NCBI GenBank assembly: GCA_032718475.1
Contig: JAUCBJ010000547.1
Location: 1-60,355, forward strand
DNA from: Nemertoderma westbladi
Lineage: Eukaryota > Animalia > Xenacoelomorpha
Direction: 5' to 3'
Length of the DNA stretch: 60,355 nt
Shown here in pieces: positions 13,968 to 53,836 of the stretch. Each line of letters starts with the position of its first letter. The first letter of the stretch is position 1. Under the pieces are notes generated by a model. It was not told where the DNA came from. It saw nothing but the letters and a program-made list of their open reading frames with translations, and made no database searches. Position numbers and translations under genes: made by a program.

Positions 13968-13978
13968 ATAACAGTTAT
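13968..13978 (+). promoter_or_regulatory. Element A putative self-primer binding site (ATAACAGTTAT)
   Basis: Abuts the LTR end, lacks the TGG of a tRNA PBS, and is the exact reverse complement of ATAACTGTTAT at 13201-13211 inside the LTR. Confidence 0.65.
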
Positions 13979-28900: not shown

Positions 28901-30188
28901 CCGCGCTTTGACCAAGCTCAGCCTAAGAAACTCAGCTGCAGAGAAGTTGGATAGCGCTGGATTCGCCATTTTCAAAGAGATTTGTATATCGAATTTGCAC
29001 TCCTCGGTTATACAAAGACCTCGAATCCCCACAGGTTATTCTGTCGTGGAAATTCAGACAATAGGTCCACCTGAAGAGACAGACACGCCCACCTCAGCTA
29101 TGCACTTGGAAGACGAGCCAATATGTCTAGAATCTGAGGAGATTCAGCCTATCGCGTCCCGGAACAGCGACAACGACTACATCATAGAATGGTATCAAGG
29201 TCCACAGTGTCTCACTGCGTACGATTATCGACATGCCAACTATGTTTCTAGGCAACGTTGTCGGTTATGCGCATCGAGAGACCATGATACGCCCATGGAC
29301 ACAAACGTCCGCTGTTCCTATTTCCAAGAACAACCGACTATGGAAATTTATTGCGCATATTGCAGAATCAATAACTTGCATATCTTTGCGGTTTGCCCTC
29401 AATTTATGACTCAATGTCACCATTGTCAACTAAAGGGACATGCCAGTTTCGATTGCCCTTTTAATCACGATTTGGAAAGCGTAGATGAAATGATCACACT
29501 ACGTTACATCAGAGCTTGGGAAGCGAACGCTGATTTACATTGTGATTCGCGCCATCGCTATTATCCCGGACGCGCTTACGAAGGAGTTTATGCGTTCCAT
29601 CCTTATCTATTCGCTTCGGTCGAACAGAAATCACGCATATCGAGTTACGAGCTACTGAAGCGCGTCGGAGAATGTATTTCAACCAAATTTGTACGCAAAT
29701 TTCTCAGGAGTGTTAATCCTAGCGACCTTCATTCCTATAACTTAATCAATTACATCCGTCAGGATCCAGACTATGGAGACTTATTTGTTAACTCACACCC
29801 CGAGTTACAGGAAGTATATCGACGGCCTTACGAATACCGAGCCCGCGAACGCGAGTTGGAAAGAACCATTAAACCCCGGAGGTTTCTAACTGCCTATGGT
29901 CCACCCACGGCCCTCGTTCAGACCACTCGTAAAGGACCCGTAAGAGCGGCTGTCTTAAAACGAGCTCTCAAAGCCGTTAGACCCCTCTCCCCCGACGTTG
30001 ATGTCAATCAACCCGGTACTTCGACTGGCGGATACACCGACCATAATCCTACACCCTCTGATGCAATCATATTGCACCCTTCACCCAGGAGTTATAGCCC
30101 TCCTTGTAAAGTGGCTCGCCCCAAAGAGAAAAGGACTCTGGCTAGCTTTAAAAAACTGCGTAAACGCCGTCCGCGCAAGAAAGACTAA
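25935..30188 (+). CDS. Element A extra ORF3 (1417 aa): N-terminal CxxC/CxxH domain, DEDD 3'-5' exonuclease (WRN/EXD/Mut-7-like), CCHC zinc fingers, basic tail
   Basis: ExoI VTYDNEG; ExoII LPQPVLEMLFNERILKIGSAVYGDL; FVDT; ExoIII-like YTIFE; CRLC..H..C, CAYC..H..CP..CHHC..GH..C; colinear with ORF 35335-38919; no signal peptide or TM segment evident, so not env-like. Confidence 0.85.
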   Translation: MTELIEDDLGIRERYTLPLQAFVDSLIRGEADPTITEDDGRYIEPPMSQEQLARELDYRKFTARYTNRNGTYMDFLTTGHPIDLHDTDDVDTEREMVLFKYHTQRSRNDKPRIDHENSIRNRLERENVEEPDKRIDFNEYLEFLRETYLNIASQQNLETRYPQGIHHDPVVELKRLYFTMMYLTAERPLPVIPDSFEQMEEYCKTGERSPAFPLQDVRLWYYCDECPRPNQQTERHKHPRRHCAKHSFTRYTYGSFERNLFDVPPTIARLKRSLNKPMIRVPEYSVRPPHSLVRPQTLDPNSITDPPELYSLFKDLVLPEQLIGGAPVVGSLDIRPSYLAGLGRGQLISPFDPYNRPGLNPMQPATEVEESIIRNALDAIRQKIGKGTQDCLEKRKLQQQVQSVKELALPQFDREIQNLEEDIELGRTYSLQEFLDERLQRQAEENLLEEKHTKLEEREEAALAQPEAQILMTDLYSQTIRHPSMIPHFGDKLFATIQPQPVDISTGSQNLIADAPMLQRPPIEATRVDGILVEPPDNRADLVRRMVHDVNIRARPLQNSFYGIKDHPYYVNLTQYYMVKPEDPTHNLKFLPLINPLDIVELEQLQKHLDQLVKVNSFRKPYNISRIEKDIEPPYNLDGFIKTRLVHWNLDVLFEEEKIQRYGNLETYTTRHMKYSDLPDANQCATLWHPVGMTLENATKEWNETLNVIEMYGVVTYDNEGSVPVGELGTTRMIHIRGLAGSTHVFTRACSDVIDYSFETLTETQRNLRHGQFELTQRYVIDTERKPAMGIDGSMLPQPVLEMLFNERILKIGSAVYGDLQNDFRNMENIPYPFVDTQLIAPWAEGRGFFRTMYANTSSNITKVQRTSIGHLAFQEYGWNFKVGNPINYQQVYGDHYSRLYFDGPLTAPGAVYSFMSVPLRPSLAIYTIFENTALAGWVADVCSRTIRAHPLILGTKLAKLDEHNKFIRFECFRRFLTPFRNVDSQFKDRALTKLSLRNSAAEKLDSAGFAIFKEICISNLHSSVIQRPRIPTGYSVVEIQTIGPPEETDTPTSAMHLEDEPICLESEEIQPIASRNSDNDYIIEWYQGPQCLTAYDYRHANYVSRQRCRLCASRDHDTPMDTNVRCSYFQEQPTMEIYCAYCRINNLHIFAVCPQFMTQCHHCQLKGHASFDCPFNHDLESVDEMITLRYIRAWEANADLHCDSRHRYYPGRAYEGVYAFHPYLFASVEQKSRISSYELLKRVGECISTKFVRKFLRSVNPSDLHSYNLINYIRQDPDYGDLFVNSHPELQEVYRRPYEYRARERELERTIKPRRFLTAYGPPTALVQTTRKGPVRAAVLKRALKAVRPLSPDVDVNQPGTSTGGYTDHNPTPSDAIILHPSPRSYSPPCKVARPKEKRTLASFKKLRKRRPRKKD

Positions 30189-32630: not shown

Positions 32631-34540
32631 TATTCGAAGAGACAGTAACAATACCTGCAATATCCTACTGTAAAGTTTGTGAATCAAATCATAAATCCGA
32701 CCTTCTCACCAAAACAGTAAACTCTAAGTAAGCGAATATATTGCAGTATCGATCTCTTATAACCGGTGAGGCAGAAAACAGTCTACGAGCAGACAAACTT
32801 CGATAAAACAAAATCCCGCGCAGCGAATCCTAAAATCAGGCTGACTCACTGACGGACTAAGGGGCTCGTATACTTTGCCGCGGTGTGATTTATATGGTTG
32901 GGCGAAAGGGACGCTAGCTAGGTACAGAGGCAGAGATTTGGAGATGTCTAACTAGCGGGCAAAGCACAGTACGGACAAAGTTAATTTTATATATTTTGAG
33001 GTGTAAATAATTTCTAACGCGCGCGTGTGTTAATTTTGAACGGTCAAAGGCAGTTTTGCTCCTTCACATATATAATTACTGGGTACGGTGTGCATTTTAC
33101 GAATATTCTAATTTTGTAACTTGTAGGTCCAATACTCACGAATGATAAGGTTCCTTCCCCTCTTGCGTATTTCCAGAACTCAAATTCAGGCATAAGGTTA
33201 ATGCTACGCCCAGAATTCGGCAATTTTAATTACCAGGCCCCTAATACTAAGAAGAAATGTGTTAGTTTACTACTGTAGGCGTACAGTTACTAATAGCTAT
33301 CCTGGCTCTTATCTAGAATTTTAGTCACCTAGGTAGGCTGGGTAACTTCCTATCAGGACGTTGGCGGGGACACGGTAGATGTTAGTATATCCCTAATAGC
33401 CTCAATTTATTTGCGCCTAGTTGTAAACTGCCCTACCGCCTGAACGGTACAATCCCAATTCAGGTGAAACACAGCAACCCTCCTAGCCTACAAGTTCTAA
33501 TGCAATGGACACCGTTGTACTACAAATAGTCGCAAACGCACCTGCACTTAGCAAGAGTTAGGCGTACAGTTTGCTGCACCCTACCAATGTGTATGCTTCG
33601 TACCGGTGTGCCTACGTCCTATCTGCGTACTAGTATCTGCCTGCTCTTTCCCTCCCCCCGTAGGAATGTGAAGGTCTACTGTGGTTTTTCCTGAATCAAG
33701 ACAGTACGGTCCCTAAGATGTAATTTTAGGCTCACAGCGTGTCACTACTTCTACCTTTTGATCTTTGGTCTTACGCTTAGGTAGCAAGGCGTCGAACGCT
33801 GTCTAACCTTTCAGGCGATGGGCGAATAACTAATGGTGGTATTGCGGGTTGTCTCCTGTCTACATTCCCTTGATGTTCCCGTTCATTGCTGCGGCCCGAT
33901 CTCTAGCCGGCCATCCTGTTCCTAAGGGTGTTCACCGTAGTGAATCATGGTAAAAGAAAAGCAGGTAGCGGTATTTCTGAATTTATTGCAGATAATAATA
34001 CAAATGTAATCTGAAAACTAATGACAGAATAAACAAATATCAGATAACTCAGAGATAAGAAATATAATCTGTGATGAGAATGATAAGATAACTAATGAAC
34101 AAATCGCACCTTTATATACCAAATTTGTGCTGCAATCAATCGAGAAAATTCTCGATTGTTCTATAGGTTCTAACAGGTTTTTAAAGATAACTATTGGTCC
34201 AGCTAATATATAACTTGCACGACATTGGTTACGATCAAATAACTGCAGTCTCATTGGTTAATCTAGGTACAAACAAATGCAATTTAATTTGTAGCGGTTA
34301 ATTTAAATGAGTTGAAATTCTGCACAAAAAATAATTCGCACTTACTAGGATTCGAACTCAATACCTACTACACATATAATTTCCAACGCTCTACCGACTG
34401 AGCTACTGAACCACTTGAATAATAGGCGTACAATAGATATAACAAATACAAATGAGGACTCAAAGCAATCTTTTACAAAGTTAATTCGAATAAAAATAAA
34501 ATTTTGAAAATCCACGGCATTTAGGGAATATAATTCTATA
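32631..34540 (-). repeat. Element B 3' LTR (1910 bp), TA...TA termini
   Basis: Direct repeat of 49874-51782 with about 3 substitutions and one 1-bp indel seen by eye. Confidence 0.96.
34326..34412 (-). ncRNA. tRNA-like Pol III unit in element B LTR (3' LTR copy)
   Basis: Minus strand GGTTCAG-TA-GCTC-AGTCGGTA-GAGC...GAGTTCGAATCC...TTTTTT: intact D arm/A box, B box and T6 terminator; acceptor and anticodon stems do not pair. Confidence 0.6.
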
Positions 34541-34547
34541 CCACTCC
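34541..34547 (-). promoter_or_regulatory. Element B polypurine tract (GGAGTGG)
   Basis: Immediately upstream of the 3' LTR in element orientation; resembles the element A PPT. Confidence 0.7.
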
Positions 34548-35334
34548 ATGAAAACAGGATATTATCGTGCATAAAATATACGGTTTTCACCAATAATCAA
34601 TCAAACTATAGAATACTTAGGGCGTACTTACATATTTACAAATTAAATTTCAAACAATACTTCCTTTCTACATAATGATTCGATGCAAAATAATTACAAA
34701 TTCAAACTTTACTTAGTTAAGGCTTTACTAAGTAAGTACAATATAAATCTAAATTAAATTCACCAATATAAATCTATTGCATCTCAATATTGCATAAATT
34801 CAAACAATTACAAATACAAATAAATGAAAATCATAAGAAAGGCTCGCGAGTCTTCCATCTACTATTGCATCTCAAATATTGCATAAATTCAAATAATTAC
34901 AAATACTTTCGTGCCTAAATGTAGATTGCATAAGTTCGGAATAATTACAAATATGAGTCTTTCTAAGCACAAAACTTTCTAACTATAAAACTTTCTAAAT
35001 ACAAAATATAACACTTTACAAATGAAACTATAAGAAAGGCCCACGAGTCTTCCATCTACTCTTACTTTCTATTTCACTGTAAATACAAATACTGCTTATA
35101 AGATATAAATTGCATAATATTCGGAACAATATAAATTGCATAAGTTCGGAATAATCACAAATATAAAATATAAATCTTGCAAAATATAAATTCTTACTGA
35201 ATATAAATTCTTACTAAATATGAGTTTTTCCAGAATACAAAACTTACTAATTAAATATAAAACATATAATTCAAAATAAATCACAAATTCACAAGAAAGG
35301 CTCACGAGTCTTCCGTCCACCCTTGCCCTCCCTT

Positions 35335-38300
35335 TTATCGCTTAGTTGATCGAGCCCTGCCGCGTCCTCGAAGACTGCGCACAGGTGACTTTGCTCGCGA
35401 TATGGGACTTGTGGGGCGAGTCACTGGTTTTGTTTGGACGTTGAGAGACGGTGCGACTATTTCCTCGCAAATTCGTCTATTTGGCATCCCAAAACCTCGA
35501 CCGATTCCTCGTGACCGATCAGTTGTCACTACAGTTGGTAGAACGTCTGGGAACGCGCGGGAAGTGGACGACGCAGACCCAAGAGTAGCTTGCGCCCCCT
35601 TCTGATCAGCTGGTGTGTGTCCCGATCCTCCTGTTGGTTCTCTAGGAAGCGATACCGTATCCCGAGTAATTCGAATGGTCGGCTCGACTCCCTTGCGTTC
35701 TTCTATATTAATAGACTTCTTTAACTGTTGGCCCACTTTCTGGACCCGTATGATCCTACCCTGTCCGTCCTCCCGAGGGTGACGTGCAGATGGCGCAACC
35801 GGAGTGGCTGGTATATTTGTCGCCTCTAGGACCTCCTCTTCCTCGAATACGCTCGCTCGTATACGTTTATGGTAAAACGCGGCTCGGTACGCCCATGCGA
35901 CAGTTAACCAAGCTCCTTTATTCCGCTTTTCAGTTCGGAAACGATCGAATTCACCATACGTGATGCGATTAACGACTTTCTGAAAATTCCACGTGTTTTT
36001 GTTATCCGGGTGAATCTGTAGTAGATACTCGCGCACTACTCGGAATCCACTGTCGTGGGGCAAAATATCGACTACCTCGATAAGTTCGTCATATTGGGGC
36101 ATAGCGGAGATGTATCCTTCCGACATCATCGTTTGGGGATTTACCGCCCAAAATCCAAGATGCGCCCTCATCGGAAATCGTCTTCTTTGTGCCGATACAT
36201 GTTCGTCGGCTAAATCTTCCCACTCATCAAATAATTTTCTCACGAGTTTTACAGATTCGTGTTCATAAGGTATGTCTCTTAGTTGGCATTCAGATGCTCG
36301 ATGCCCTTTTATATTGCAATAAGTACATTGAGCCATAAATCTCCAGCAAGTATAAAAGGTATGAGACCCTTGATCCCCACACCATCCACAGATTAGCTGA
36401 GTCGTAGTAATGTGCTTTCCACTGCACTTTGTCATATGATGTCCAGCGACGCCACATTTACCACACATCGTATTGGCAGGGTACCACACTCGTTCGTATA
36501 TAAGATCTCCAATCGGTCGAGCGCTTCCTCCCACACTATAATCGTAATCATCTGGATCTATGGGTTGGTAGGTTTCTGAAGGTTGTATACAAACTATAGC
36601 ATCTGTTGCTTCAAGTTGTCGAATCTCCGTCTGAGATTTCTTCGGGAGGTTTCTTTCTATCTCAAGAAGTTCCTCTAAAGGATCGTCAGTGATCGTAGTA
36701 GTTACTTCGAAATCATCACCAAGGTGACCGATAGGCGCGCGCGTCTGCCGTGATTCATCCGTAATCTCCACGATACGTTCTCCTTCGTAGGGTAATAATG
36801 TAAACATAGATGGTCTTTCGATAAGAGATCCCGCACAGCGAAGATACACGTCTCGAAATATACTAAATCCTGCTCGAGTAAAGGCATTACACTGAGCGTC
36901 GGAGTTATAGAAGGGTTCAAGGAATCGTCTAAACACGTCGGTATGAATTCTCCCTTCCATGTTGAATGTATGATCTTCTCCGAGACAAAGTGGATGTCTT
37001 TTGAGAGTCCGAGACACAATGTCGGCGATTAGGCAAACATTCACTGACGACTCTATTGCTAAATAATATTGTAGGACCGCTCTTGGAGGTGACGTAATAG
37101 CCCAATACACGCATCCTCTCCATTTAAGCTGTGATTCAAACTCACTCATATCTGGAGTATCACCTTCTCCATAAGTTTCAATAAACTTGTTTCTCTTACT
37201 TTCCTTATAATCCCAATTGAATAACAGGTAGGAAATGTATCCAGTTCCAGTCTTCTGAGTATTGTACTCACGAAAATATCCCTGTTCTATAGACCACAAA
37301 ATAAGAGGTCGAGTGTCGACGTAAGGTGTCGGTAGTCGGTCATCGCTGTCCGTCATGCCGGCGAAGTCGCTAATTAAGTCCTCCCTTACTCCTGATCCAA
37401 TCTTTACAACAGTTTTATCTAAAATCATGTTTCTTACCATCTTCGGTAGCATTCTAGCGTCGATATTACAAGCTTGGTCCATCTTCTTTACTATGTCGGT
37501 GATAAGATGGTGTCGCTTTGTATTCGCTGGAGGTATCGGCATTCGTTTGTCGCTCCTCTGTCTACTGAAAACGTGCAGGACTCCGTCCGCCGCTCTAATT
37601 TGTATAGTCTTAGAAGTCAAACTCTGCTGATGACTGCCGCCCTCGTTATCGTAAAACATGTAACCATTTTCCTGAAACGATCTAAACGTCCTATTCCATT
37701 CATCCAACAATTCTTCCGAAGGTTGCCAAATCTTCTCTATGTCCTTATCATCTTCGAAACGAATAACCTTACCTCGCCAATCCGCGGCAATATCTGTATC
37801 CGACTCGAAGGTTCCGGTTCCAATCCATAAACGAATCGTCTTGGTTAAATATCCTTTCAAATTACTCGGAGCTATATCGGCACCAGCTCTATCCAGTTCC
37901 TTAAAGTCTTGAATATGAGGTGGAACGTTGTACACGACCTTTTGAGTAATATGTCTACGTAAATCATATATCTTACTCATATCGCTGAAAACAACTGCAG
38001 GAAGAAACTCCAAGTTTGAAATGATTTCTGGATGATCCACGATGGGTATTTCGTACGTCGTATCCTGTCGGACTGGTATACTAATAGGAAAATTGAGTGT
38101 CGTACTCAATGGTTTCGTAGTTGAAGTACTATATGGTTGCATTTCTCTTGTCCTCTCCGGGGATGCAATCTGTAGTCTCTGAATAACGTTTTGAGCAAAG
38201 TTTATGCTCTCGAAAACTTCCGGTGTCATCTCCTTAGCTGGAGTTTGATCGTGTGACGTCCAATGGTAAGGTAGGCTCGCGAGTCTTCCGCCCCATTCTT

Positions 38301-38919
38301 CCATCTCACCTTTCTCGAAAGCCTTGTAGGCTCTGTATAGGCTAAGAGCTTCTTTCTTTTCGCGGGTTGACTGATTTGCCTCGTCCAGCGTAAGTTCAAA
38401 TACATCGGGTTCAACAACCTTAGGTGGGTAAATGACAGTTTCTCCCGCCTTTGGTCCGGTCATAGCAAATGAATGATATGGATTCGATAAAGGATACCCT
38501 CCTTCCTGATAGCGTAGTTGTTGATGGTTCGAACACCTCGCCAATATCGGTTCGGGATTTTCCTTATTCAAACGCATTGGAATCGCATTTCGTTGTTCGC
38601 GCATACAAGAACCGCATTGATAATAAAGTTTATAAACTGAAAATGCTTCCTTGGCTTCTCTATCGTCCCCTCGAGTTCGTCTGTAAAGATGCATTCCATC
38701 GAATTCATCGCGTACCGCAGGCATAGGTTCGTGCGCCTTTAGGTATTGCATGGTATGATACAAACGACTAATTTCAGTATCGGGGTCTTCGCTAATGTCT
38801 CCCGTATCACACAAAGCGTCGTACGGGTAAAGTTCGTTGAAGGTTTTGCGCAAACTTTCGATTCTTTCGTTTAATGCATTTTGTCTTCTCTTTAATACAT
38901 TTGAGTCATATTTAGTCAT
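35335..38919 (-). CDS. Element B extra ORF3 (1194 aa): CxxC/CxxH domain, DEDD 3'-5' exonuclease, CCHC zinc fingers, basic tail
   Basis: ExoI MFYDNEG; IQIRA; ExoII LPKMVRNMILDKTVVKIGSGVREDL; YVDT; ExoIII-like YYLAIE; CGKCGVAGHHMTKC, CGWC..H..C, CTYCNIKGHRASEC; homologous to 25935-30188. Confidence 0.85.
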   Translation of the reverse strand: MTKYDSNVLKRRQNALNERIESLRKTFNELYPYDALCDTGDISEDPDTEISRLYHTMQYLKAHEPMPAVRDEFDGMHLYRRTRGDDREAKEAFSVYKLYYQCGSCMREQRNAIPMRLNKENPEPILARCSNHQQLRYQEGGYPLSNPYHSFAMTGPKAGETVIYPPKVVEPDVFELTLDEANQSTREKKEALSLYRAYKAFEKGEMEEWGGRLASLPYHWTSHDQTPAKEMTPEVFESINFAQNVIQRLQIASPERTREMQPYSTSTTKPLSTTLNFPISIPVRQDTTYEIPIVDHPEIISNLEFLPAVVFSDMSKIYDLRRHITQKVVYNVPPHIQDFKELDRAGADIAPSNLKGYLTKTIRLWIGTGTFESDTDIAADWRGKVIRFEDDKDIEKIWQPSEELLDEWNRTFRSFQENGYMFYDNEGGSHQQSLTSKTIQIRAADGVLHVFSRQRSDKRMPIPPANTKRHHLITDIVKKMDQACNIDARMLPKMVRNMILDKTVVKIGSGVREDLISDFAGMTDSDDRLPTPYVDTRPLILWSIEQGYFREYNTQKTGTGYISYLLFNWDYKESKRNKFIETYGEGDTPDMSEFESQLKWRGCVYWAITSPPRAVLQYYLAIESSVNVCLIADIVSRTLKRHPLCLGEDHTFNMEGRIHTDVFRRFLEPFYNSDAQCNAFTRAGFSIFRDVYLRCAGSLIERPSMFTLLPYEGERIVEITDESRQTRAPIGHLGDDFEVTTTITDDPLEELLEIERNLPKKSQTEIRQLEATDAIVCIQPSETYQPIDPDDYDYSVGGSARPIGDLIYERVWYPANTMCGKCGVAGHHMTKCSGKHITTTQLICGWCGDQGSHTFYTCWRFMAQCTYCNIKGHRASECQLRDIPYEHESVKLVRKLFDEWEDLADEHVSAQRRRFPMRAHLGFWAVNPQTMMSEGYISAMPQYDELIEVVDILPHDSGFRVVREYLLQIHPDNKNTWNFQKVVNRITYGEFDRFRTEKRNKGAWLTVAWAYRAAFYHKRIRASVFEEEEVLEATNIPATPVAPSARHPREDGQGRIIRVQKVGQQLKKSINIEERKGVEPTIRITRDTVSLPREPTGGSGHTPADQKGAQATLGSASSTSRAFPDVLPTVVTTDRSRGIGRGFGMPNRRICEEIVAPSLNVQTKPVTRPTSPISRAKSPVRSLRGRGRARSTKR

Positions 38920-39532
38920 ATCATAGTTTCGCTGTACTTTCCGATAATTCCTTTATACCAAATATAGTGTAGTCCTTGGCTCCAAATCTTTCGAATGGCG
39001 CTGCTGCCTCCTCTTGGATATCATATCCCCATCTCGGCTCTCCTTGTATCCCTTTCTCCATAATTAGAGGTGTAGTTACATAATCATTACTACTAGAGGG
39101 AATACAACAGAGTTTGTAGTTAGTTGTGAGGAGACGTGAGAGTTTCGTCTGCCCTTTGGGCTCGACAACGCTCTAACCTCCTACCCATAGCCTAAGATCT
39201 AGGGTTTCTTTAATGACACGCTGCTTCTTATCTAAAATTTTTTGCCGAAATAAAAACGAATTTGGGCTAAACTGGCTGTGAGTCTAAAATACTCACTTTT
39301 TGATCCCAAACTATTATCAGAAAATAAGCAATCAAGAATTAGTAATAAATATAGGGGAGTCTATTTATTGACGTAACTTATTGAAACAAGACCGTGTAAA
39401 ATTTAATTAATATTTTAAGAAAGGCTCGCAAGTCTTCCTCTCTTGTTTCTCTAATTTTAAGTTCCACCCGACTGTACCCTGAAATCTATTCACTGGAGAA
39501 AATTTTAAAATTTTCAAATCCAAATGGATTGT

Positions 39533-42500
39533 CTAAAATTTCGAAAATGTCTCAATATTGTGAGTTCCAAGTAGTTGTTGAGTCGGTCTGTCTACTGTAC
39601 GACCGTCAATTGTCCGTACCGTCACAGTTCTTGTCACTCCATCCATAGATGGATGTGTGGCTAAAATTACACCTGTTATCCAGAAGCGTCTTTTTAGATT
39701 CACTTCCGCTAACAGCACGTGATCTCCCGGCTTTAATGCCCGGGTGTTATTGTACCATGTTGTTCTGGCAGAAATAGAGGGCAAATAATGGTTTTGCCAT
39801 ATTTCCCAGAATTTGTTAGCCAGTAGTTGCGTGATTTTCCACGCTTTTCTACCGTAGCTATCGTTTTCTATTGGAATAGAAATAGGCGTCAAAGTGGTCG
39901 GTGCCCGCATTAGCAGGTGTGCCGGTGTCAAAGCAAACTGAGATTGTTTGTCATCGGGTACTAATACTATTGGTCTAGTATTTAGTATTGCCTCGATTTC
40001 AACAAACAGTGTTGTCAGTTGGTCGTCTGTCAATATGTGGTTTACTGGAATGACCTTTGCCATGGCTGTCTTTATAGATCTAATCAATCTCTCCCAGACT
40101 CCGCCTCTCCATGGACTATCTGGAGGATTAAACTTCCAAACAATCTTGTGAGGTTGTAGTTCGTTCGAGATTTGATCATGATCTAATTTCTTAAAGGCTA
40201 TCTCATTTCGAGCACCAACAAAGTTTGTCCCTTGGTCTGAGTACAAGCATTTTACTAGTCCGCGTCTAGCGATAAATCGCCGCAATGCTAGTATAAACGC
40301 GTTGGTGGAAAGATCCATCACACGTTCAATATGAACTGCCCTACTGGACATACATGTGAAAATCAGTCCCCAGCGTTTTACTAGTATACGTCCACGTTTC
40401 GTATGTATGGGACCAAAGCAATCAATTCCAGTCTCTGTAAAAGGTGGTCTGAATGCTTGAAGTCGTGCTTGTGGAAGTTCACTCATTTCTTGGGTACCTA
40501 TTCTAGAATGTACCTTTTTACAAATAATACACGTACGTGTCACTGAACTTAATGCTTTACTGGGTCTAATTAATACAAATCTTGTACGTAAGTAGGAAAG
40601 ACAGTGGTGTCTTCCAGCGTGTTTCAGATGTAAATGTGCGTCCAGTATCATTGCACGTTGTAGTTCGTGATGTTGTGGTATTATTATTGGGTATCTAAAG
40701 TTTGTGTTAAAGTCAATGTTTTGAAGCCGAGATTTATGACAAATTAAGCCATTATAAATTATCGGACTCCAACTCAATATTGGTGACGACTTGATTGGTT
40801 GACCTTGATTTATGGATGTGAATTCGCGTGCGAAATATCGCAGTTGGTAATGGCGAATTAATTTAATCTCACACCTGTCAATCTCAGCCAATGTAAGTCG
40901 ACGTGTAAAGTCTCGTTTGCCTTTAACGTATTGTACAAAACGTACAATCCACGCTAATTTTCGGCAAGCGTTTGTCCAAGAGTCTGTTAAGTTTACAATA
41001 CGGTCGACGTAAGTATTTGTGACGTCATCAGGTAAGTCAATGGAGATTTTGGAAGGTTTTGATTTACTAGAAGGGCCCACGGGTCCGCCGGTAAGTATTC
41101 CCTTGTTGACTGTTGATCCGTCCGGGTCTACAAGTAATTTGTCCTTCTTCGTCTTCTTACCCTGGTTGTCAGTACTTTGTAAGTCGATCGTTAATGGTGG
41201 TTTGAACTCTATGGGGTCACTGGGTTTCGGTAAACTTAATTTTCTGCCGACATTAATCCCAGGTCTCACCATAGGTTGCAAGTTTGGTATGTCTCTTGAG
41301 CGCAGAGTAACACCTGTATTTACATTAGCGTAGGTACTACCCACATCTGTAATACATGAGGTTTCACCGTGCTTGTGGTTGCTCAAATGTGTCAAAATTG
41401 GTAGTTTGTCAATACAAGGCCGCTCCAATAGGGAAACTGCGGCTTTACTATTTGTCAATATGGTACTAGTGTCTGGTAGAACATTTTGTGACATGTCTGG
41501 TAAAATGTTTCGCGGAACATCCGGCGAAATATCTAATGACGTGTCTGGCAAAACGTCTGGTTGACCGTCTAGTAACGTGTCTGGCGATACGTCTGGTAAC
41601 GTATCTGGTTGTTTGTCAATAGAAGGCCGCTCCAATAGAGAAACTGCGGCTTTACTGTTTGTCAGTATGTTACTAGTGTCTGGTAGAACATTTTGTGATA
41701 TGTCTGGCAAAACGTCTGGTTGACTGTCTAGTAACGTATCTGGTTGACCGTCTGGCGATATGTCTGGTGTAGAAAGGCTCGCAAGTCTTCCTCTCTTGAC
41801 CTTTGAAGTTATATCCTTCCATTTCGCCTTAGGTTTCTTCTTGAGTTTAGCCGCCGTCGTCTTTTTCTTTGCCTTCCCCTTTTTTGGTTTCTTGATTTCG
41901 GCGTCTTTAGGGATAGTGTTAGACTTGTTGTCATATAACGGTGGCCAATCTTGTGTCGATTTCTGCAAGAATTGGGGTCCGTGTTGCCAAAATTCTTTGT
42001 TCTCCGGTTTACAGAATTCCTCAGGCATCATTCCTCGCGACGCAATATCGGCTGGGTTTTGTGGTCCGGGACAATGTCGCCAATCTTCCAATTGAACGGT
42101 CTAGAATTTCCGCGCGACGGTTAGCTACGAATGTCTTGAATTCAAGTGTGTCGTTGTTTATGTAAAATAAAACCAACGTCGCGTCAGTCCAATAAAATAT
42201 CTGTAAACTTGACTGTAGTTCTGTCTGTATAAGGTTCACAATTGTGGTTGACAGTGTTGCGGCTTGTAGCTCAGCTCGTGGTGTCGTCATATACTTAGTA
42301 GGCATTGTTTTTGCCTTAGAAGTAATGAGCGAAACATCGAATTCTTCTGAGTCTACTTGTCTGCGCAAGTACGCTGCCACACCAAAACCGTTGTCACTAG
42401 CGTCGGAAAAACAGTGTAATTCCAAGCTGTCAGGAAATGTTGTTTGTAATGGAAAGTAGACTCTGGGTATGGAATAATCCTCTAGCGAAGATAATTCTGC

Positions 42501-44690
42501 CTCCCAGGTCTTCCATAAGTCCACTTGGTCTGATGAGATCGGCTCGTCCCATGTCAGTCCATCCTTCCAAATACTGCGCATATAAATGCGGGCTTGCAGT
42601 ATTATTGGACTGATGAATCCTAATGGATCGAACAATCGGCTCAATTTTGACAAGCATGATCTCTTTGTCAGTGTGTTTTCTTGACTGTCCAGTCTCACCC
42701 TCACTCGAAAGTTGTCTGTGTTTGGGTCCCAAAAGAGCCCCAACACTTTGGTCGTCGGTAGTGGTTCGAACTCTAGGTCTATGTCACCACCTCCACGCTC
42801 AGTCGTTCCGAATGAGTCTACTAATTCGGCACTGTTTGAGGCGAATTTGGTGAGGTTAAAACCTCCGCCCGCTAAGCAGTCCCGTAATTGATGTGCTACT
42901 GTTGTAGCACGTTCTACTGTGTCGCAACTCTGTAAACCGTCGTCGACGTAAAAGTCACGTTCCACAATCCTAATTATCTCTGGGTCATACAGGTGTTTCT
43001 GATCCCTAGCGGCTTGCTTTAGGGCATACATTGTACAATTTGGGCTGTCCCTGGCACCGAAAACGCGAACTTGCATTTGGTAAGTCGCCGGTGGTAGACT
43101 TAAGTCTCCTTCCGGATACCAGAGGAACCTCAAACTGTCTCTGTCTTGCTCTAACGCTCTCACTTGGTGAAACATAGCTTCGACGTCACAAGTAAAGGCT
43201 ACTTGACGCTGACGGAAGCGCATAATCACCCCCATAAGATAATTATTCATGTTTGGTCCATCCATCAACTCGCTATTGAGGGACATTCCCTCAAACAGAG
43301 CCGCACAGTCATTGACTACACGTACTTTGTCTGGTTTGTCGGGGTGTCTCACAAAGTGATGTGGCAAATAGTATGTCTGGTTAGTCACTATCTCTGGGTT
43401 AGTCATTCGGATAGCGTATCCCTTGGTCAAATACGTCTCCATCTGAGTGTTGTACTGCAGATGGGCTTTCTCGTCCTTTAATAGACGTTGTCGTATTGAG
43501 TGTAGACGTCTTAAAGCTAGTGGATAGTTATTTATGAGTTTAGGACTTTGGCTACGCCATAACATCCCTACCTCATAATGTCCGTCCTCCGTCTGGCGGA
43601 TAGTATCTTCCATGATCCTCAAAGATTGTTTCTCTTGTTCCGACATACATGGTTCGTAGCTACCAGGTTCAGCTGTATCTTGTTCTAACCACCTGATAGT
43701 CTTCTCCGTTAATTCTTTGTCCAATGCAGCTTGTTCCACTTGATGATTTATCAACGCGTCATCATCGATATCGACGGGTATTGTTGAGGTTATTGGGGTA
43801 GGTAGACTCGCAAGCCTTCCGGCGTTATCATCTGTCGTCGATGGAATCTCTAGCTGACTCGTCTTCTCCCCAAGTTCTAAACTCACCTGGTGGATTAGCT
43901 GCTCCTTGTGACTTATCATACTAGTCACACGTCTGTCATGTCTTGTATGTAAGGTAGTATGGTCCACGTCGTGTGAAAAGGAATGAATTGAATTTGTAGT
44001 TAATAAACTACATGTACTTTGTACATCGTCTTCCTCGTCACTTATGTCTAGTGTGCGCACAGGCGCTCGAGTATACCACCCTATCGGCGTTCTACAGGCG
44101 TATGCGTTTCCCGCTACGACTGCCGATGGTCTGGTTTCCCACACTTGATGTAGATTGAATTGGTCTGTCCCGATCAGCATTGCTACCGATCTATAATTGA
44201 CAGGACATTCAGGTACACCAAGGTGTCTGAAATACTTACGGTCCTCCAAGGATTGTTCTGGGACAGGACCTAGTAGGTTACTAAAGTCTTTTGTGGCCGC
44301 AAAAGTCAAATCCTTGAAGGGTAACAAAGACCTCTCCTTTTCGCTGTGTTGCGATTTTGGAAGAAGAGTGTCTAAGTTTAACTTAACTCGTGTCACTGGT
44401 ATTGCACGTTGTCCGTGCATACTACTTACGGTGTAACTGACGCGCTTACCTTGTCTGAGATCCGTTACTACATCAGCTATCTGCTCATCCACGTAGCTGT
44501 GAGATGAGGCTGAATCCAGGATAGCGTAGATTCTCTTGCTCCCTTTTGTGCCAGTAATCTTAATCGGAATTACGCTGAATCCCTTTAGTTGGTCAGTCGT
44601 CAGAAGCGCGATCGATGGTTGTTCGTCTCCATCAGAATATACGTCGTCGTCTTCTGACTCTTCGTCCGACGATCCGGATTTTTTCTGAGA
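39533..44690 (-). pseudogene. pol: Element B pol (protease, RT, RNase H, integrase) with a frameshift near 42090
   Basis: Protease AILDSAS (~44520, upstream of the called ORF start), YYLPHHFV, CDVEAMFHQV, FYVDDG, HCFSDAS, TPRAELQAA, WRHCPGPQNPADIASRG, TGIDCFGP, SDQGTNF, WERLIRSIK. Confidence 0.92.
41400..41770. repeat. ~207-bp duplication with 12-bp PDxx sub-repeats in the element B RNaseH-integrase linker
   Basis: PD(I/M)SQNVLPDTS.ILTNSKAAVSLLERP.IDK occurs twice; cgctccaata at 41421 and 41628. Confidence 0.85.
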
Positions 44691-47600
44691 AGCAATCCTT
44701 TATATGTGTCACAAAGTTTGGAGTCGTTTTCGATTCTCGATTTTTGTAGGCCGCATCACATCTCGCTGCTGCTTCCGGGTGTTCCCTGGCGAAGCGTTTT
44801 GTCGGCGTGTGGCTGTCTGTGTGGAGCAGACCGTCGTGGTTGCGTCCACAGGATGGACAAGTGTCGGTATTTGGGCAATCCTTGCGAACGTGTCCGTGTC
44901 GCGTACACCGCCAACAAGAGTCCAATGGCCGTATCTGCAGCCGTCGTTCTTCCGAGTTTAACTCGCGAAACTGTCGACAACCTCTCAACTTGTGACCGAT
45001 ATACCGCTTGCCTAAATGCTCGCAGTATTGGCAGCCGCTGAAGTCGGTACTGAGTTGCTGTCTCGTCTGTTTTGTCCCAATGGGCGCAGATACCCTACTA
45101 CCGTCCGAGAATTGTCGTGATTCCGTCGGTGTGGCGTAAGTGGCCGTCTTGGTGGATGTTGTCTGGGGTCTTTGTCGGTTTGAGGATGGCAAGGTGATTC
45201 CTTCTGCCACGATGTGCTGGTCAGTGTAGTTGGATCGAGTTTCTACCACTGCTTCCCTGGATATCAAAAGGTACACATCCTCCAGTTTTAAGAATCCACC
45301 CCGCTCTTCTCGCTGGTATTCGATCTTCCTCCACTCCCGACGAAGTCGATGGTGGAGTCGTCCTATGATCTTTAATAGGACTGTAGGGGTATTCCCGTAG
45401 TCAAGTTGTCCAATGGATCTCAAAGTAGTGATAGCGTTCTTTATCTCGTCAGCCAGTTTCAATAAGTCGACGGGTTTAGTAATAGCCCCTCCCTTACAGA
45501 GTTCCTCTATCACTGACCTGGCCATGCTGACTGTACCTCCGTATATCGAAGTTAAACGATCGTACGCTAGTTCGAAGGCGTCCGGTACACCAACGAAGGT
45601 CTCCGCCAAACGTTTAGGTTCTCCTGACAACGTTCGAAGCAGGTAATTAAACTTCTCCCGTGATGTAAAGGCGCACACGGCGATCTGAGATTCGATATAG
45701 TCTACGAAAGTGTGCCAGTGTTTTGAGCTACCGGAAAACTTAGGTGGTTGTTGCACCGGCAATCCCTGTCTGGCTGCGAATTTCGCTATCTCCTCGGCAA
45801 CGTTCAGAGTTTCGCGTCCTTGGTTGGTAATCTGGTTGATGTTCTCCCTTCTTGGCGCTTTTCCCTGATACGATGTGTGTTTTGAAGGTACCGGTCTTTG
45901 TGGTTCCTTCGGGTGTCTATTGTGTTCGAATTCAGTGTTCCTCGAACTATCGGTTTGAACTTCCTCCAGACGCTCCTCGATCTGAGCCAACTTGTTAACA
46001 ACTGGTCGCAGGATGTCGGCGAACTGTTGTGTACTGATTGCGTCTGTTGGTTGTAACGCCTTCTGTGTTGGTGTATTCTGTGGAGGATTGTCTACAAAGG
46101 AGTTGTCTGAACGCTCGCGTTTATATTCATCGGCCGCCCCTGTTCTAAATACCTCGCGTTTCGGGTAATCCGATTCGCTCGAAATACTACTATCATCTGG
46201 ATATGGTGGTCGACGTGTTCGCGTCCGTTGCGTCGTACGAATTCTCACGTTTCGTTTCGGAACATCGTCCACTGATCTCCGTTGTTCGGTAGGCTCACAA
46301 GTCTTCCTCGAAGTCGTAGATTGCGATGTAAACTGGTTGAACGGTCGCGTATCCACTGTTCTCCGTTGTTCGGTAGGCTCACAAGTCTTCCTCGAAGTCG
46401 TAGATTGCGATGTAAACTGGTTGAACGGTCGCGTATCCAATGTTCTCCATTGTTCGGTAGGCTCACAAGTCTTCCCCGAAGTCGTAGATTGCGATGTAAA
46501 CTGGTTGAACGGTCGCGTATCCACTGTTCTCCGTTGTTCGGTAGGCTCACAAGTCTTCCTCGAAGTCGTAGATTGCGATGTAAACTGGTTGAACGGTGGT
46601 CGAATGACAGCATTTGAATCAACTGGCCTTGTAGGTCGAAACGTCATTGGGTAAGCGTAGAGTGTAACGGGTTTAGGTGTCGACGGTGGACTCACCTGTT
46701 TAGTCGTCAGTAGTGCAGGTCCAGTCAACAAACTACTACGATCTGTAATCGGTGGGTTACTTACCTTGACTTTCGGAATAGGCGACGACGTTGCTCTTGG
46801 CGGTGTAAACTTGTCCGGAATAACAAACCTGTGTTCCGTCGCACCATGGATAGGAGAAATATCACTACTACCCGCAATCGAAACAGGTTCCTTAGTTGTA
46901 ACTGGTGCGAACATAGGGGTTACTTGAGGGAATCTTTGACATAAGTCTTTAACTAATTGTCGTTCCCGTCCGGGTGCTCCTATCGAACCTTCCTTCATTC
47001 GTTCCTGGATTTGGCGGTGCCTTACCTCTATCTGGTCCAAATCATGTCCGTCACGAGATCTCATCGATCGATCGCGGGCTAGAAGATCCAGATTTTCCTT
47101 GGCTTCGGCTAATTCTCTCGCCTTCTTCTCAAGTTCGAAACGAAGTTTAACTTCCTTTTCTCATTGTTCCGTTTGTTGTTGTTGCGCCTCGAACTCTGCT
47201 TGTCGTATCGCTGATTGTGCTTTTATTTGCCGTGTCTTCATCTCGACTCTGGCTTCTGAAACTAACCTTTTTCTTTCTAACTCTGCCGCTGCCGTTTGTC
47301 GCTCTAACTCGGCTGCTGCCGTTCGTTGCGCTAACTCGGCCGCTGCCGTTCGTTGCGCTAACTCGGCCGCTGCCGTTTGTCGCTCTAACTCGGCCGCTGC
47401 CGCTGCCGTTTGTCGCTCTAACTCGGCTGTTGCCGTTCGTTGCGCTAACTCGGCCGCTGCCGCTTGTTGAGCAATGTCCAACTCTAACCTTTCCATTTCC
47501 GCTGCTTCGAGTTCGGCTTGTTCCTGCAGATGAGAGATTCTCGCTACATTCGCAACACGTATTTTCTCTTCCTCTACCGCTGTTTGTATCATTAGTAGTT

Positions 47601-48471
47601 GAGTTTGTTCTTCCATCTCGTGTTGCTGCCTGTAGAACTGTTGCTGTTGTCGAGCAACTTCTGACGTGACCATGCTTACCTCGTTAATCTTGCTGCGAAT
47701 ACTCACCAGTGATTGATCCAGTATTCCCGGTGCCGATTCGATTCGTACGGGTGAAGTTTCCCTCGTGTATTCCGGCACGGTTTCCGAATCGCCGACGTCT
47801 TCGCCGCACATACGTAAGTGGTCCGTCAGGTGTTTCAATTGTCCATCCAGTCGGTACAGTTCCTGTTCTTCCTCGGGCTGCAATAATTCGTCCGAAACTG
47901 ACTCACCTAACAACTGGTCCGCTTGTTCCTGTTGTATCTGCCTAATCGTCGACTTAAACTGAATCAGTTTCTCTCTAGCGATCATTAGTTTCTCGAGGAT
48001 TCTAAGCTGAGTGTCCATATCCTGTCTCTGTCTAGCTAGATCTTGTAGACCAATTAGGTTATCTACGGACTTATGTACTTTACTCTGTACTCTTACCTGT
48101 AAAGTGTAGAACTCGAACCGAGACATCGGAGCGGTCAACTCGTCTAATATGCGTTGGCCTTCTCCAATACTCCTGGTTATATGCGCCATGTAACCGCCGA
48201 CGCTTCTAACCACACTTTCTGTGCTTCCTACTGAACTTACCATCTCCGTTTCCCTATATCTAGGTTGCGGAACAGTCAGAAAGTCCTTGGTCCTGCCATC
48301 GCCTCGTACTACGGCATCCGGTACTCCCGTTGGATGTACTGGTGACGCACACGGTGTAGGTTCGGTAGGCTCGCGAGTCTTCCCCTGTTGTTCTTCCGCT
48401 GCTGACTTATCTCCGTCACATGAGTCATAGTCGGTTTGTGTATTCTTCGTATAGTCTTGTTTGTCACTCAT
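44632..48471 (-). pseudogene. gag: Element B gag (in-frame TGA at 47161-47163; frame change to protease near 44640-44700)
   Basis: Coiled coil with 9-aa AAAEL(A/E)(Q/R)(R/Q)T repeats, PPKFSGS..W..F, EKFNYLLRTLSGE, three knuckles (CQYC..H..C, CWRCTRHGHVRKDC, CPSCGRNHDGLLH); the two ORFs share a frame. Confidence 0.9.
46268..46598. repeat. 84-bp tandem repeat x4 inside element B gag
   Basis: 28-aa repeat RPFNQFTSQSTTSRKTCEPTEQRRTVDT; near-identical DNA copies. Confidence 0.95.
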
Positions 48472-49200
48472 TTCGGTAGTTGTAAGTCAAGTAAAGTGAG
48501 TGTCAAAGTATCAAACTTACCGTATTTTATCTAAACGGTACTAATTACAGTCATATAAAATTATCCTACCGGCCGATTTTACAGCAGATGGATAAAATTA
48601 GCCTAAACGGCCAATTTTACAGCAAATAAATGTCACGGAATAAGTATTTAATAAAATTAGCCTAGCGGCCAATTTTATAACAAATAAATCGGATAACGAT
48701 ATGCGTTATCAAAAGGTAAATTAAATACAATAATACGGACTAATTCAGCAATGAACAAAGAAATCATACGGAATGCATAAATACTTGAGACAGTGGAACC
48801 CACAATAATTTTAACTAATACGGTAATGCCTAACTTATTTATGCAACTTTTCGAAATCACCCACTCCAATAATTCTCCAGAAAAACAGATTCCCAGATAC
48901 AAACCGAACGTGAACCTTTCCGTTTTCAGCGTTGCGGACGAAGCGCGATTTTCCCAACCAAAGTTGTTGGGTTATCTATCTCCCAAACTTGCTAAACACG
49001 GTCTTGCTCCCGTCACAGTCTAGAAATGAGTTCTGAATCCTGAAAAACAAAAGAGTTAGGTTTTACTTTTACGAAAAATTTTGTACCGGTACAATATGGT
49101 ATTTAAACCCTTTTTAAACACCGGTATTCAATTCCAAAATATTTTACACGCGGTTCAAATCAAATTTTATTTCAAAATATTAGCACTTAGCTAATCAAAT

Positions 49201-50390
49201 ATAAATTTTTACCTCAAAATACAAAATTTTCAAATAACTTTAGTCCTACCGAACCGTAGTTCAGTAAAACACATTCCTACTATTCGAAGAGACAGTAACA
49301 ATACCTGCAATATCCTACTGTAAAGTTTGTGAATCAAATCATAAATCCGACCTTCTCACCAAAACAGTAAACTCTAAGTAAGCGAATATATTGCAGTATC
49401 GATCTCTTATAACCGGTGAGGCAGAAAACAGTCTACGAGCAGACAAACTTCGATAAAACAAAATCCCGCGCAGCGAATCCTAAAATCAGGCTGACTCACT
49501 GACGGACTAAGGGGCTCGTATACTTTGCCGCGGTGTGATTTATATGGTTGGGCGAAAGGGACGCTAGCTAGGTACAGAGGCAGAGATTTGGAGATGTCTA
49601 ACTAGCGGGCAAAGCACAGTACGGACAAAGTTAATTTTATATATTTTGAGGTGTAAATAATTTCTAACGCGCGTGTGTGTTAATTTTGAACGGTCAAAGG
49701 CAGTTTTGCTCCTTCACATATATAATTACTGGTACGGTGTGCATTTTACGAATATTCTAATTTTGTAACTTGTAGGTCCAATACTCACGAATGATAAATT
49801 TTTACCTCAAAATACAAAATTTTCAAATAACTTTAGTCCTACCGAACCGTAGTTCAGTAAAACACATTCCTACTATTCGAAGAGACAGTAACAATACCTG
49901 CAATATCCTACTGTAAAGTTTGTGAATCAAATCATAAATCCGACCTTCTCACCAAAACAGTAAACTCTAAGTAAGCGAATATATTGCAGTATCGATCTCT
50001 TATAACCGGTGAGGCAGAAAACAGTCTACGAGCAGACAAACTTCGATAAAACAAAATCCCGCGCAGCGAATCCTAAAATCAGGCTGACTCACTGACGGAC
50101 TAAGGGGCTCGTATACTTTGCCGCGGTGTGATTTATATGGTTGGGCGAAAGGGACGCTAGCTAGGTACAGAGGCAGAGATTTGGAGATGTCTAACTAGCG
50201 GGCAAAGCACAGTACGGACAAAGTTAATTTTATATATTTTGAGGTGTAAATAATTTCTAACGCGCGTGTGTGTTAATTTTGAACGGTCAAAGGCAGTTTT
50301 GCTCCTTCACATATATAATTACTGGTACGGTGTGCATTTTACGAATATTCTAATTTTGTAACTTGTAGGTCCAATACTCACGAATGATAA
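49201..50390. repeat. 593-bp tandem duplication covering the U5 end of the element B 5' LTR plus 80 bp of leader
   Basis: ataaatttttacctc at 49201 and 49794; LTR end tattcgaaga at 49281 and 49874; ATAA microhomology at the junction. Confidence 0.93.
49863..49873 (-). promoter_or_regulatory. Element B putative self-primer binding site (GTAGGAATGTG on element strand); duplicate at 49270-49280
   Basis: Abuts the 5' LTR end; exact reverse complement of element-strand CACATTCCTAC at 50912-50902 within the LTR (33670-33660 in the 3' LTR). Confidence 0.7.
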
Positions 50391-51782
50391 GGTTCCTTCC
50401 CCTCTTGCGTATTTCCAGGACTCAAATTCAGGCATAAGGTTAATGCTACGCCCAGAATTCGGCAATTTTAATTACCAGGCCCCTAATACTAAGAAGAAAT
50501 GTGTTAGTTTACTACTGTAGGCGTACAGTTACTAATAGCTATCCTGGCTCTTATCTAGAATTTTAGTCACCTAGGTAGGCTGGGTAACTTCCTATCAGGA
50601 CGTTGGCGGGGACACGGTAGATGTTAGTATATCCCTAATAGCCTCAATTTATTTGCGCCTAGTTGTAAACTCCCCTACCGCCTGAACGGTACAATCCCAA
50701 TTCAGGTGAAACACAGCAACCCTCCTAGCCTACAAGTTCTAATGCAATGGACACCGTTGTACTACAAATAGTCGCAAACGCACCTGCACTTAGCAAGAGT
50801 TAGGCGTACAGTTTGCTGCACCCTACCAATGTGTATGCTTCGTACCGGTGTGCCTACGTCCTATCTGCGTACTAGTATCTGCCTGCTCTTTCCCTCCCCC
50901 CGTAGGAATGTGAAGGTCTACTGTGGTTTTTCCTGAATCAAGACAGTACGGTCCCTAAGATGTAATTTTAGGCTCACAGCGTGTCACTACTTCTACCTTT
51001 TGATCTTTGGTCTTACGCTTAGGTAGCAAGGCGTCGAACGCTGTCTAACCTTTCAGGCGATGGGCGAATAACTAATGGTGGTATTGCGGGTTGTCTCCTG
51101 TCTACATTCCCTTGATGTTCCCGTTCATTGCTGCGGCCCGATCTCTAGCCGGCCATCCTGTTCCTAAGGGTGTTCACCGTAGTGAATCATGGTAAAAGAA
51201 AAGCAGGTAGCGGTATTTCTGAATTTATTGCAGATAATAATACAAATGTAATCTGAAAACTAATGACAGAATAAACAAATATCAGATAACTCAGAGATAA
51301 GAAATATAATCTGTGATGAGAATGATAAGATAACTAATGAACAAATCGCACCTTTATATACCAAATTTGTGCTGCAATCAATCGAGAAAATTCTCGATTG
51401 TTCTATAGGTTCTAACAGGTTTTTAAAGATAACTATTGGTCCAGCTAATATATAACTTGCACGACATTGGTTACGATCAAATAACTGCAGTCTCATTGGT
51501 TAATCTAGGTACAAACAAATGCAATTTAATTTGTAGCGGTTAATTTAAATGAGTTGAAATTCTGCACAAAAAATAATTCGCACTTACTAGGATTCGAACT
51601 CAATACCTACTACACATATAATTTCCAACGCTCTACCGACTGAGCTACTGAACCACTTGAATAATAGGCGTACAATAGATATAACAAATACAAATGAGGA
51701 CTCAAAGCAATCTTTTACAAAGTTAATTCGAATAAAAATAAAATTTTGAAAATCCACGGCATTTAGGGAATATAATTCTATA
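49874..51782 (-). repeat. Element B 5' LTR (1909 bp)
   Basis: Matches 32631-34540; flanked by TSD CAACT. Confidence 0.96.
51568..51654 (-). ncRNA. tRNA-like Pol III unit in element B LTR (5' LTR copy)
   Basis: Same sequence as 34326-34412. Confidence 0.6.
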
Positions 51783-52210
51783 CAACTATAGGAGTATTTC
51801 TCGACCTCGCAAAAGCCTTCGATACGGTCGACCACGATATACTGATTACTAAACTCGAACACTTTGGAGTTCGTGGAATCCCACTTACGTGGTTCAAAAG
51901 TTACTTGTATCGTCGACAATAATACGTAGACGTCCATGGTACATTCTCAGAAGTATCTTTAATGTTATTGAGGGTGCCTCAAGGATCTATCCTTGGGCCC
52001 CTTTTATTTCTCATCTACATCAATGATATATCTCATGTCTCCAATTTAATTAAATTACTACTTTTTGCGGATGATACAAATATTTTCATCTCTGGGAAAA
52101 ATATTAAAAACATGTTCGACATTCTTAACCATGAATTATCTAAAGTATCTGATTGGCTCACATTGAATAAATTATCAATCAATATCTCAAAAACAAAATT
52201 TGTTATTTTT
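51783..52210 (+). mobile_element. Degenerate CR1/L2-type LINE ORF2, piece 3 (RT core), 3'-truncated at satellite
   Basis: [53 protein letters not shown]; one in-frame stop. Confidence 0.92.
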
Positions 52211-53763: not shown

Positions 53764-53836
53764 CTCTTTGAATTCTTACTAACTTGTTAATACGGCAACA
53801 CCCAGACAAGCAGGAGCCGCTTCTGATATTACTGTT

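Follow-up and report, generated by a model that had tools for sequence, protein, structure and literature searches.

Analysis of a 60,355-nucleotide (nt) stretch of Nemertoderma westbladi DNA (assembly GCA_032718475.1, contig JAUCBJ010000547.1, positions 1 to 60,355; hereafter the window) revealed two complete retrotransposons of the BEL/Pao type, named A and B, whose predicted primer-binding sites are exact 11-nt complements of a segment of their own long terminal repeats (LTRs). Since a complement with other letters was found at the same position in A and in relatives of both elements, self-priming in some form is, judging from the sequences, very probable. A and B likely prime minus-strand DNA synthesis with their own RNA, whereby the primer would lie inside a longer leader and be cut in cis.

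Self-complementary primer sites of elements A and B

Element B is read on the reverse strand, and its 5′ LTR ends with TCGAATA at position 49874. Two independent markers, the 3′ LTR (32631) and the target-site duplication AGTTG, define this end, so that the 5′ LTR extends over 49874–51782 with unusual TA...TA termini. The 11 nt directly following it (49873–49863, i.e., at offset 0) are the reverse complement of 50912–50902, and perfect pairing ends at 11 nt; a first-pass annotation made from the letters alone had given both segments with exact coordinates and letters. Dinucleotide shuffling of the LTR produced such a match in 6 of 20,000 cases, or 28 of 20,000 with offsets of 0–3 allowed, and among internal 11-mers of B, 10 of 14,645 have a complement in the LTR. 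The self-complement in B is a real feature and not a product of chance.

All mature tRNAs end in CCA at their 3′ end. The first 80 nt behind the 5′ LTR contain no TGG in A or B, so that no mature tRNA 3′ end can pair there in B, as had already been recognized in the first pass. A primer site of the host-tRNA 3′-end type, as given in the profile of the International Committee on Taxonomy of Viruses (ICTV), is thus lacking in both elements.

Element A, whose signature had been overlooked before, revealed a self-match of 11 nt, likewise at offset 0, with letters unrelated to those of B (21 of 20,000 shuffles). A splice lengthening the match was sought in A and B, and none was found. A second 11-nt complement in the A LTR (13158 with 13889) was rejected as chance; its helix would cross that of the primer, and the 3′ LTR does not keep the complement intact. 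In run X1, which consists of contigs of uncertain type and whose coverage excludes the B 11-mer and the B primer site, three contigs retain the primer-site letters of A but depart from it at four of the five bases that follow (loose end at 31464, agreement 0.82). Neither transcript starts nor splice joints were visible in X1.

The signature in related elements

Relatives were collected by an alignment-based scan of metagenome contigs for the reverse transcriptase (RT), which resulted in 79 loci of 37–44% identity (the best 80 of 472); no relatives were found among the viral contigs searched. For 14 elements, A and B included, the LTR end is fixed by an LTR pair, and both contiguous and spliced matches were scored in this set. 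Ten of them showed a self-match of 10–15 nt. In the controls, at least 10 nt was reached by 2 of 172 pairs across families and by 1 of 98 windows placed downstream. In addition, 62 of the 79 loci were scanned blindly, leaving out three with repeated or doubled elements and 14 with less than 300 nt of usable upstream sequence. Here, spliced matches were detected on the sense strand in 15 loci and on the antisense strand in one.

By looser rules, 25 families were curated, with 14 of the 25 LTR ends inferred from the match itself. Their matches are 10–15 nt long at offsets of 0–6, 18 being spliced and seven contiguous. In the corresponding control, 14 of 600 cross pairs reached 10 nt, six of these among three related families. 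L011 and L035, which have a donor and acceptor like L067 and an LTR end beyond the 900 nt scanned, were left unscored. A check of the complementarity in related elements, as suggested by the first-pass annotation, showed that it is kept position-specifically, with different letters, in A and 23 further families.

Spliced primers, primer ends and phylogeny

In 18 of the 25 curated families, the match does not arise unless two segments of the LTR are joined at a predicted GT-AG junction, and the upstream exon contributes only 4–10 nt to the match. The donors are canonical (GTAAGT in 11 of the 18). In all 25 families the primer ends in AC or AT, with C or G as the next base in 23, and A and B obey this rule for the primer end. 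Downstream of the primer, A[A/T]TAAA occurs in 18 families, in 14 of these at a distance of up to 100 nt. The motif TACTTAC, which on the opposite strand reads as a splice-donor consensus, is common to L042, L068, L031, L078, L022 and L052 near the LTR start (first 45 nt).

On the RT tree, A, B and a third element of the window (C) form one branch among the self-complementary families, which are set apart from L027 with its TGG-type primer site at moderate support (88/77). The contiguous state requires six changes on the tree, five of them forced by well-supported branches, and shows no clustering (as few changes in 230 of 500 shuffles). Sister pairs, e.g., L052 (spliced) and L031 (contiguous), have the 3′ half of the primer in common. 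The simplest reading of the contiguous families would be repeated intron loss. Most relatives would possess the primer only once the LTR intron has been spliced out; A and B look like forms without this intron, which may have been lost as in RNA-copied elements, and intron-less forms would occur on at least five separate branches.

Proposed priming mechanism and its alternatives

In the proposed mechanism, the genomic RNA would fold back in its 5′ part and bring the 11-mer into a duplex with the primer site, and another short helix beyond a bulge would assist this pairing. By analogy with Tf1, the RNase H of the element would cut just 3′ of the conserved A[C/T] and free a 3′-OH at the LTR end, from which RT would copy U5 back to the cut. 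The resulting strong-stop DNA would then jump to the R region of the 3′ end, which would have to continue beyond the 11-mer as far as a poly(A) signal downstream (50653 in B). That signal, an AATAAA placed about 260 nt downstream in the first pass, lies 259 nt from the start of the 11-mer. R-U5 amounts to 760–1030 nt in A and B. A broader scenario, which we rate at slightly below even, is that an animal branch of BEL/Pao exchanged tRNA priming for an internal primer assembled by the spliceosome, with a bulged two-helix duplex and a cut after A[C/T], and that A and B are intron-less descendants with a DEDDy-like nuclease that may finish the primer end.

The predicted second helix emerged across the 25 families as pairing between two 14-nt segments, one directly upstream of the match and one directly behind the primer site, mostly with a bulge of 3–5 nt. 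Own pairs reached −8.6 kcal/mol versus −5.6 kcal/mol for cross pairs (0 of 20,000 permutations). Measured against shuffles of each family's own flanks, the adjacent 14 × 14 nt gave a Fisher p of 2e-5, as against p 0.08–0.93 for four shifted window pairs, and for B itself p was 0.025. A 12-bp hairpin at 49862–49837 (reverse strand), directly after the B primer site, competes with the second helix and represents a possible RNA switch.

Promoter motifs (CCAAT, initiator) were searched in A and B by common definitions. At 587–448 nt upstream of the match, B carries a cluster of three CCAAT boxes, spaced at about 30 nt, and a TATA box, which was reproduced in 15 of 5,000 shuffles for a pattern defined after being seen, and A carries two CCAAT boxes and an initiator-like motif 120–220 nt upstream of the match. 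Among the families, six have a TATA box upstream, in five cases at least 88 nt before the match and in one (L026) close to it. In our reading, the RNA would extend at least a dozen bases upstream of the B 11-mer, perhaps by 20 or 420 nt or via an unseen intron.

Several results weigh against a primer within a longer leader cut in cis, or against the breadth of the signal behind it. The second helix of A is not significant (p 0.42), and an anchored version of the second-helix test, which is biased against the signal, gave p < 0.05 in 1 of 25 families (Fisher 0.04). In B, the primer duplex folds at 0.92–0.99 for starts at 50912–50925 and at 0.38–0.99 for 50940, and longer leaders are mostly without it (0.00–0.30, once 0.83), a result that speaks against an unspliced leader of great length. 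The A duplex was not predicted from either start tried (≤0.02), and folding over 1 kb is unreliable. A second AATAAA at 51229, missed in the first pass, lies upstream of the 11-mer and must be read through in the 3′ LTR, and the TATA box of L026 is situated 31 nt before the match, as a Tf1-like start needs. Four of the 14 pair-defined elements were missed: L027 has a TGG-type primer site, L049 and its sister L063 are not alike next to the donor, the donor of L005 is absent from the LTR copy searched, and L006 was rejected by the strict acceptor filter (11 nt with a looser one). Contiguous matches were not enriched in the blind scan (17 sense versus 12 antisense loci), and because 14 of the 25 LTR ends are derived from the match and some families are related, the curated families are not independent. 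Finally, transcript start, splice junction, cut site and primed cDNA are all predictions.

The first-pass annotation had proposed self-priming in the strict manner of Tf1, i.e., with transcription starting at the 11-mer, whose 11 nt would pair with the primer site as the first of the RNA and then be cut off. Self-priming itself is borne out by A and 23 further families with different letters; the strict form is doubtful, probably too narrow, and in our view unlikely. It draws support from the folding of B from starts next to the 11-mer, from the TATA box of L026, and from length 11 and offset 0, which agree with the description of Tf1 in the available part of PMC7175516. However, bases upstream of the match show clade-wide pairing with bases after the primer site, the strict form would require first exons of 4–10 nt in the spliced families, a TATA box near −30 is absent in 24 of 25 families, and the promoter-like cluster of B is located about 450 nt upstream.

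The two duplexes that flank the primer helix in the three-duplex "pretzel" of Tf1 were not found across the 25 families, either between the post-primer sequence and the U5 end (p 0.145) or between the post-primer and post-site sequences (p 0.78). For B, a pairing of the purine run after the primer site with the U5 end had been suggested. It reaches −17.7 kcal/mol (8 of 300 shuffles) as one of 12 tests, but it is absent in A, and in the folded whole RNA the run pairs with 50143–50154 instead of the U5 end. Likewise, the initiator-like TCACATT overlapping the 11-mer fits the loose initiator pattern YYANWYY and no stricter one.

Slightly less probable again is priming in trans, in which a short LTR RNA, mostly spliced, would anneal to the genomic primer site and be trimmed by a 3′–5′ exonuclease, in A and B maybe the product of their extra open reading frame (ORF3). 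It would explain both the survival of introns in the spliced families and the poor prediction of the cis duplex for A, and A and B both encode an ORF3 resembling DEDDy exonucleases. This exonuclease call is lead-level, however, and an ORF3 homolog was found in 0 of the 79 related loci, many of them on partial contigs, with the signature present nonetheless; ORF3 is thus unlikely to be needed for the self-complement. Moreover, the A[C/T] end and offsets of 0–6 nt suit a site-specific cut at least as well as trimming.

It is also improbable, and marginally more so, that the duplex is regulatory (suppression of the 5′ poly(A) signal, packaging or dimerization) and that a host RNA such as an internal tRNA fragment serves as primer. 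Fragments of the tRNA anticodon loop do prime other LTR elements, according to the accessible portions of PMC6317226 and PMC10886601. Yet in 25 of 25 families the paired strand starts at a distance of 0–6 nt to the LTR end, the place at which a primer has to terminate, and the primer-site letters vary by family, tracking the family's own LTR and not a common host RNA. A chance match or an assembly artefact, to which an identical 597-nt duplication (possibly an assembly error) and the broken frames of B might point, is highly improbable, as the 11-mer is present in both LTRs of B, and a self-complement is seen independently in A and also in relatives from other assemblies.

Organization of the window

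Apart from A and B, which lie in facing orientation, the window contains a third BEL/Pao element without LTRs (C) and a long interspersed nuclear element (LINE). The coordinates of the features of A and B are listed in Table 1.

Table 1. Features of elements A and B in the window.
Feature	Position	Strand	Remarks
B predicted primer-binding site	49863..49873	−	adjoins LTR end; no TGG
B predicted self-primer	50902..50912	−	exact complement of primer site; ends AC, then G
A predicted primer-binding site	13968..13978	+	adjoins LTR end
A predicted self-primer	13201..13211	+	exact 11-nt complement; ends AT, then C
B second helix, predicted upstream strand	50917..50923	−	7 bp, one G-U; 4 × 1 loop from primer helix
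B second helix, predicted downstream strand	49855..49861	−	also in competing hairpin just after primer site
B promoter-like cluster	51354..51499	−	CCAAT at 51499, 51470, 51439; TATATAA at 51360
B candidate poly(A) signal AATAAA	50648..50653	−	downstream of primer
Element B	51782 to 32631	−	19.2 kb
B 5′ LTR	49874..51782	−	1909 nt; TA...TA termini; from LTR pair and target duplication
B 3′ LTR	32631..34540	−	1910 nt; second copy of 11-mer at 33670–33660
B target-site duplication AGTTG	51783..51787 (left copy); 32626–32630 (other copy)	−	
Purine-rich tract adjoining B 3′ LTR	34541..34550	−	
B gag-pol	39533..48486	−	four open frames; one in-frame stop, two frame changes
B extra ORF	35335..38952	−	1205 amino acids; putative DEDDy-type 3′–5′ exonuclease-like domain and zinc knuckles
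B degenerate tRNA-like stretch, upstream part of LTR	51587..51647	−	A-box- and B-box-like motifs
Identical tandem copy of U5 end, primer site (49280–49270) and 76 nt of leader	49201..49797	−	597 nt
A 5′ LTR	12773..13967	+	1195 nt; TG...CA
A 3′ LTR	30267–31461	+	target duplication ATACT
A extra ORF	25920..30188	+	1422 amino acids; 27% identical to B ORF over 749 columns
In-frame repeats	46184–46681; 47256–47499; 41399–41768; 17347–17568		units of 84, 27–33, 207 and 33–39 nt, respectively

Element A spans 12773–31461 (forward strand) with LTRs of 1195 nt each that differ at five positions, and the LTR pair of B differs at four. Both insertions are young, and their gag-pol frames are broken. The two elements have no similarity at the DNA level; their Pol segments are 41–47% identical and their extra ORFs 27%. 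The LTRs of B start with TAT and end with ATA instead of TG...CA, and their termini form an inverted repeat of 8 nt that is imperfect. As the 5-bp target duplication shows, B was inserted with these TA...TA ends.

Based on conserved domains, the gag-pol region of B was found to contain DUF1759, Peptidase_A17 and DUF5641 above the cut-off and Integrase_H2C2 below it, and RT and integrase were recognized via alignment to matches carrying these families. This corresponds to the Pao-type order of Gag, protease, RT, RNase H and integrase, and an LTR pair, a purine tract and a target-site duplication are present as well, as in BEL/Pao elements. Membership in BEL/Pao (Belpaoviridae) rests on the proteins, and the non-tRNA primer site is the departure found. 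In both elements, Gag and Pol are enlarged by tandem repeats that keep the reading frame.

The 597-nt tandem copy, which was also missed in the first pass, provides B with a second primer site at 49280–49270. It has a 4-nt overlap at the junction, and agrees with the 5′ LTR at the two positions that distinguish the LTR pair here; it could represent a local duplication or else an error of the assembly.

Element C (4226–9369, reverse strand) is a degenerate copy of the BEL/Pao type, for which the RT tree gives B as the sister; no LTR pair was detected, which places it outside the self-match test. A is inserted in an apparent LINE endonuclease region (12288–12772 and 31462–32630), and B lies about 1.2 kb beyond A in the opposite orientation. 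A LINE with endonuclease and RT domains was identified at 52369–56887 (forward strand), followed by a tandem array of 50–55-nt units at 57066–57591, one unit copy of which also occurs at 52211–52289. Positions 1–1400 contain many homopolymer runs and are apparently of low quality, suggesting an unpolished contig end.

Additional open reading frame and tRNA-like stretch

ORF3 may encode a DEDDy 3′–5′ exonuclease-like protein with zinc knuckles, as suggested by weak or lead-level evidence from sequence and modelling. Atlas comparison gave 0.92–0.93 to PF01612 clusters, at lead level, and one homolog was found at 1.2e-8 among 1.84 billion representatives, itself with a PF01612 match at an E value of 0.2. 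The structural model reached a pLDDT (predicted local distance difference test) of 39 (31 for a single sequence), with EXD2 and Nibbler as top Foldseek rows at E 0.3–0.7. A further homolog search and a PDB profile search returned no hits, and a wide structure search gave no support. An envelope function for ORF3 was rejected, since neither Pfam support nor envelope features were found.

The tRNA-like stretch in the upstream part of the B LTR scored 12.2 bits (E 6.2), below the 29-bit cut-off, and is followed by a T run; ARAGORN detected no tRNA at 51587–51647. As a primer it was discarded, with only 8 nt (by eye) complementary to the leader. The X1 variant has two listed differences within the stretch and many just upstream. 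The stretch recalls Helenus elements as described in the available text of PMC10886601, but B is a coding BEL/Pao element.

Comparison with known systems

BEL/Pao replication is described as tRNA-primed and poorly understood, and for Belpaoviridae the ICTV lists tRNA-Arg or tRNA-Gly as primer at a site of 18 nt, LTRs of 0.2–1.2 kb and genomes of 4.2–10 kb (PMC8742986). The present elements resemble this family in Gag and Pol domains and their order, LTRs and purine tract (PMC8742986). In contrast, B has no tRNA-type site, its LTRs are 1.9 kb long with TA ends, it measures 19.2 kb, and its ORF3 is non-envelope. A third ORF resembling RNase D-like DEDDy exonucleases is reported for Juno and Vesta of bdelloid rotifers in the accessible part of PMC5408684; these are other LTR lineages, their ORF3 is linked there to no priming role, and the likeness to the ORF3 of A and B is one of description only.

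When the available text of the BEL/Pao surveys PMC3118150, PMC554778 and PMC6238403 was searched by terms, no treatment of the primer site turned up, and BEL/Pao self-priming was not found in the accessible portions of PMC8220671, PMC3601003, PMC12440569, PMC13524379, PMC10886601 and PMC5408684. The supplements of PMC13524379 are uninformative, as they yielded neither the primer-site letters nor two tRNA-type control motifs. Altogether, no report of BEL/Pao self-priming was found in the literature searched, outside which lie most subscription journals and Repbase Reports, so that a prior mention is possible.

If the proposed mechanism is true, it would represent a third, independent origin of self-priming after gypsy and copia elements, with another RNA architecture, and the abandonment of tRNA would be a repeatable switch. 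It would explain why tRNA-based annotation of primer sites fails on these elements, and it would likely free them from silencing by tRNA fragments. Retrotransposon replication would, moreover, be tied to host splicing, which would license reverse transcription. Junction, cut site and primer end are predicted to the base in 25 families.

In plants, self-priming of Tcn1 (gypsy) and of TAR, Houba and Osr-1 (copia) was predicted from matches of at least 10 bp located 0–5 bp after the 5′ LTR, as stated in the available part of PMC6317226. A and B, with 11 bp at offset 0, fall within these limits. The plant lineages belong to other superfamilies, and the method described there sought contiguous matches only.

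The closest parallel is found in Tf1/Tf2, Tj1, Tosmo and the Tf1/sushi group, whose primer site is complementary to 11 nt of their own LTR without use of a tRNA, and for Tf1 the RNase H cut lies between bases 11 and 12 (accessible text of PMC7175516, PMC10085805 and PMC4600332). According to these sources and the corresponding portion of PMC6317226, self-priming has been shown for Tf1 and proposed for Tf1/sushi, Tcn1 and the copia TAR lineage. The Tf1/sushi group belongs to the chromoviruses of the Ty3/gypsy superfamily, whereas the Pol of A and B is of BEL/Pao and not of chromovirus type. Furthermore, the Tf1 primer consists of the first 11 nt and is held in a pretzel of three duplexes that involves LTR sequence located downstream of it. 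In the elements described here, by contrast, the predicted extra helix uses sequence upstream of the primer, and most of their relatives would splice the primer together.

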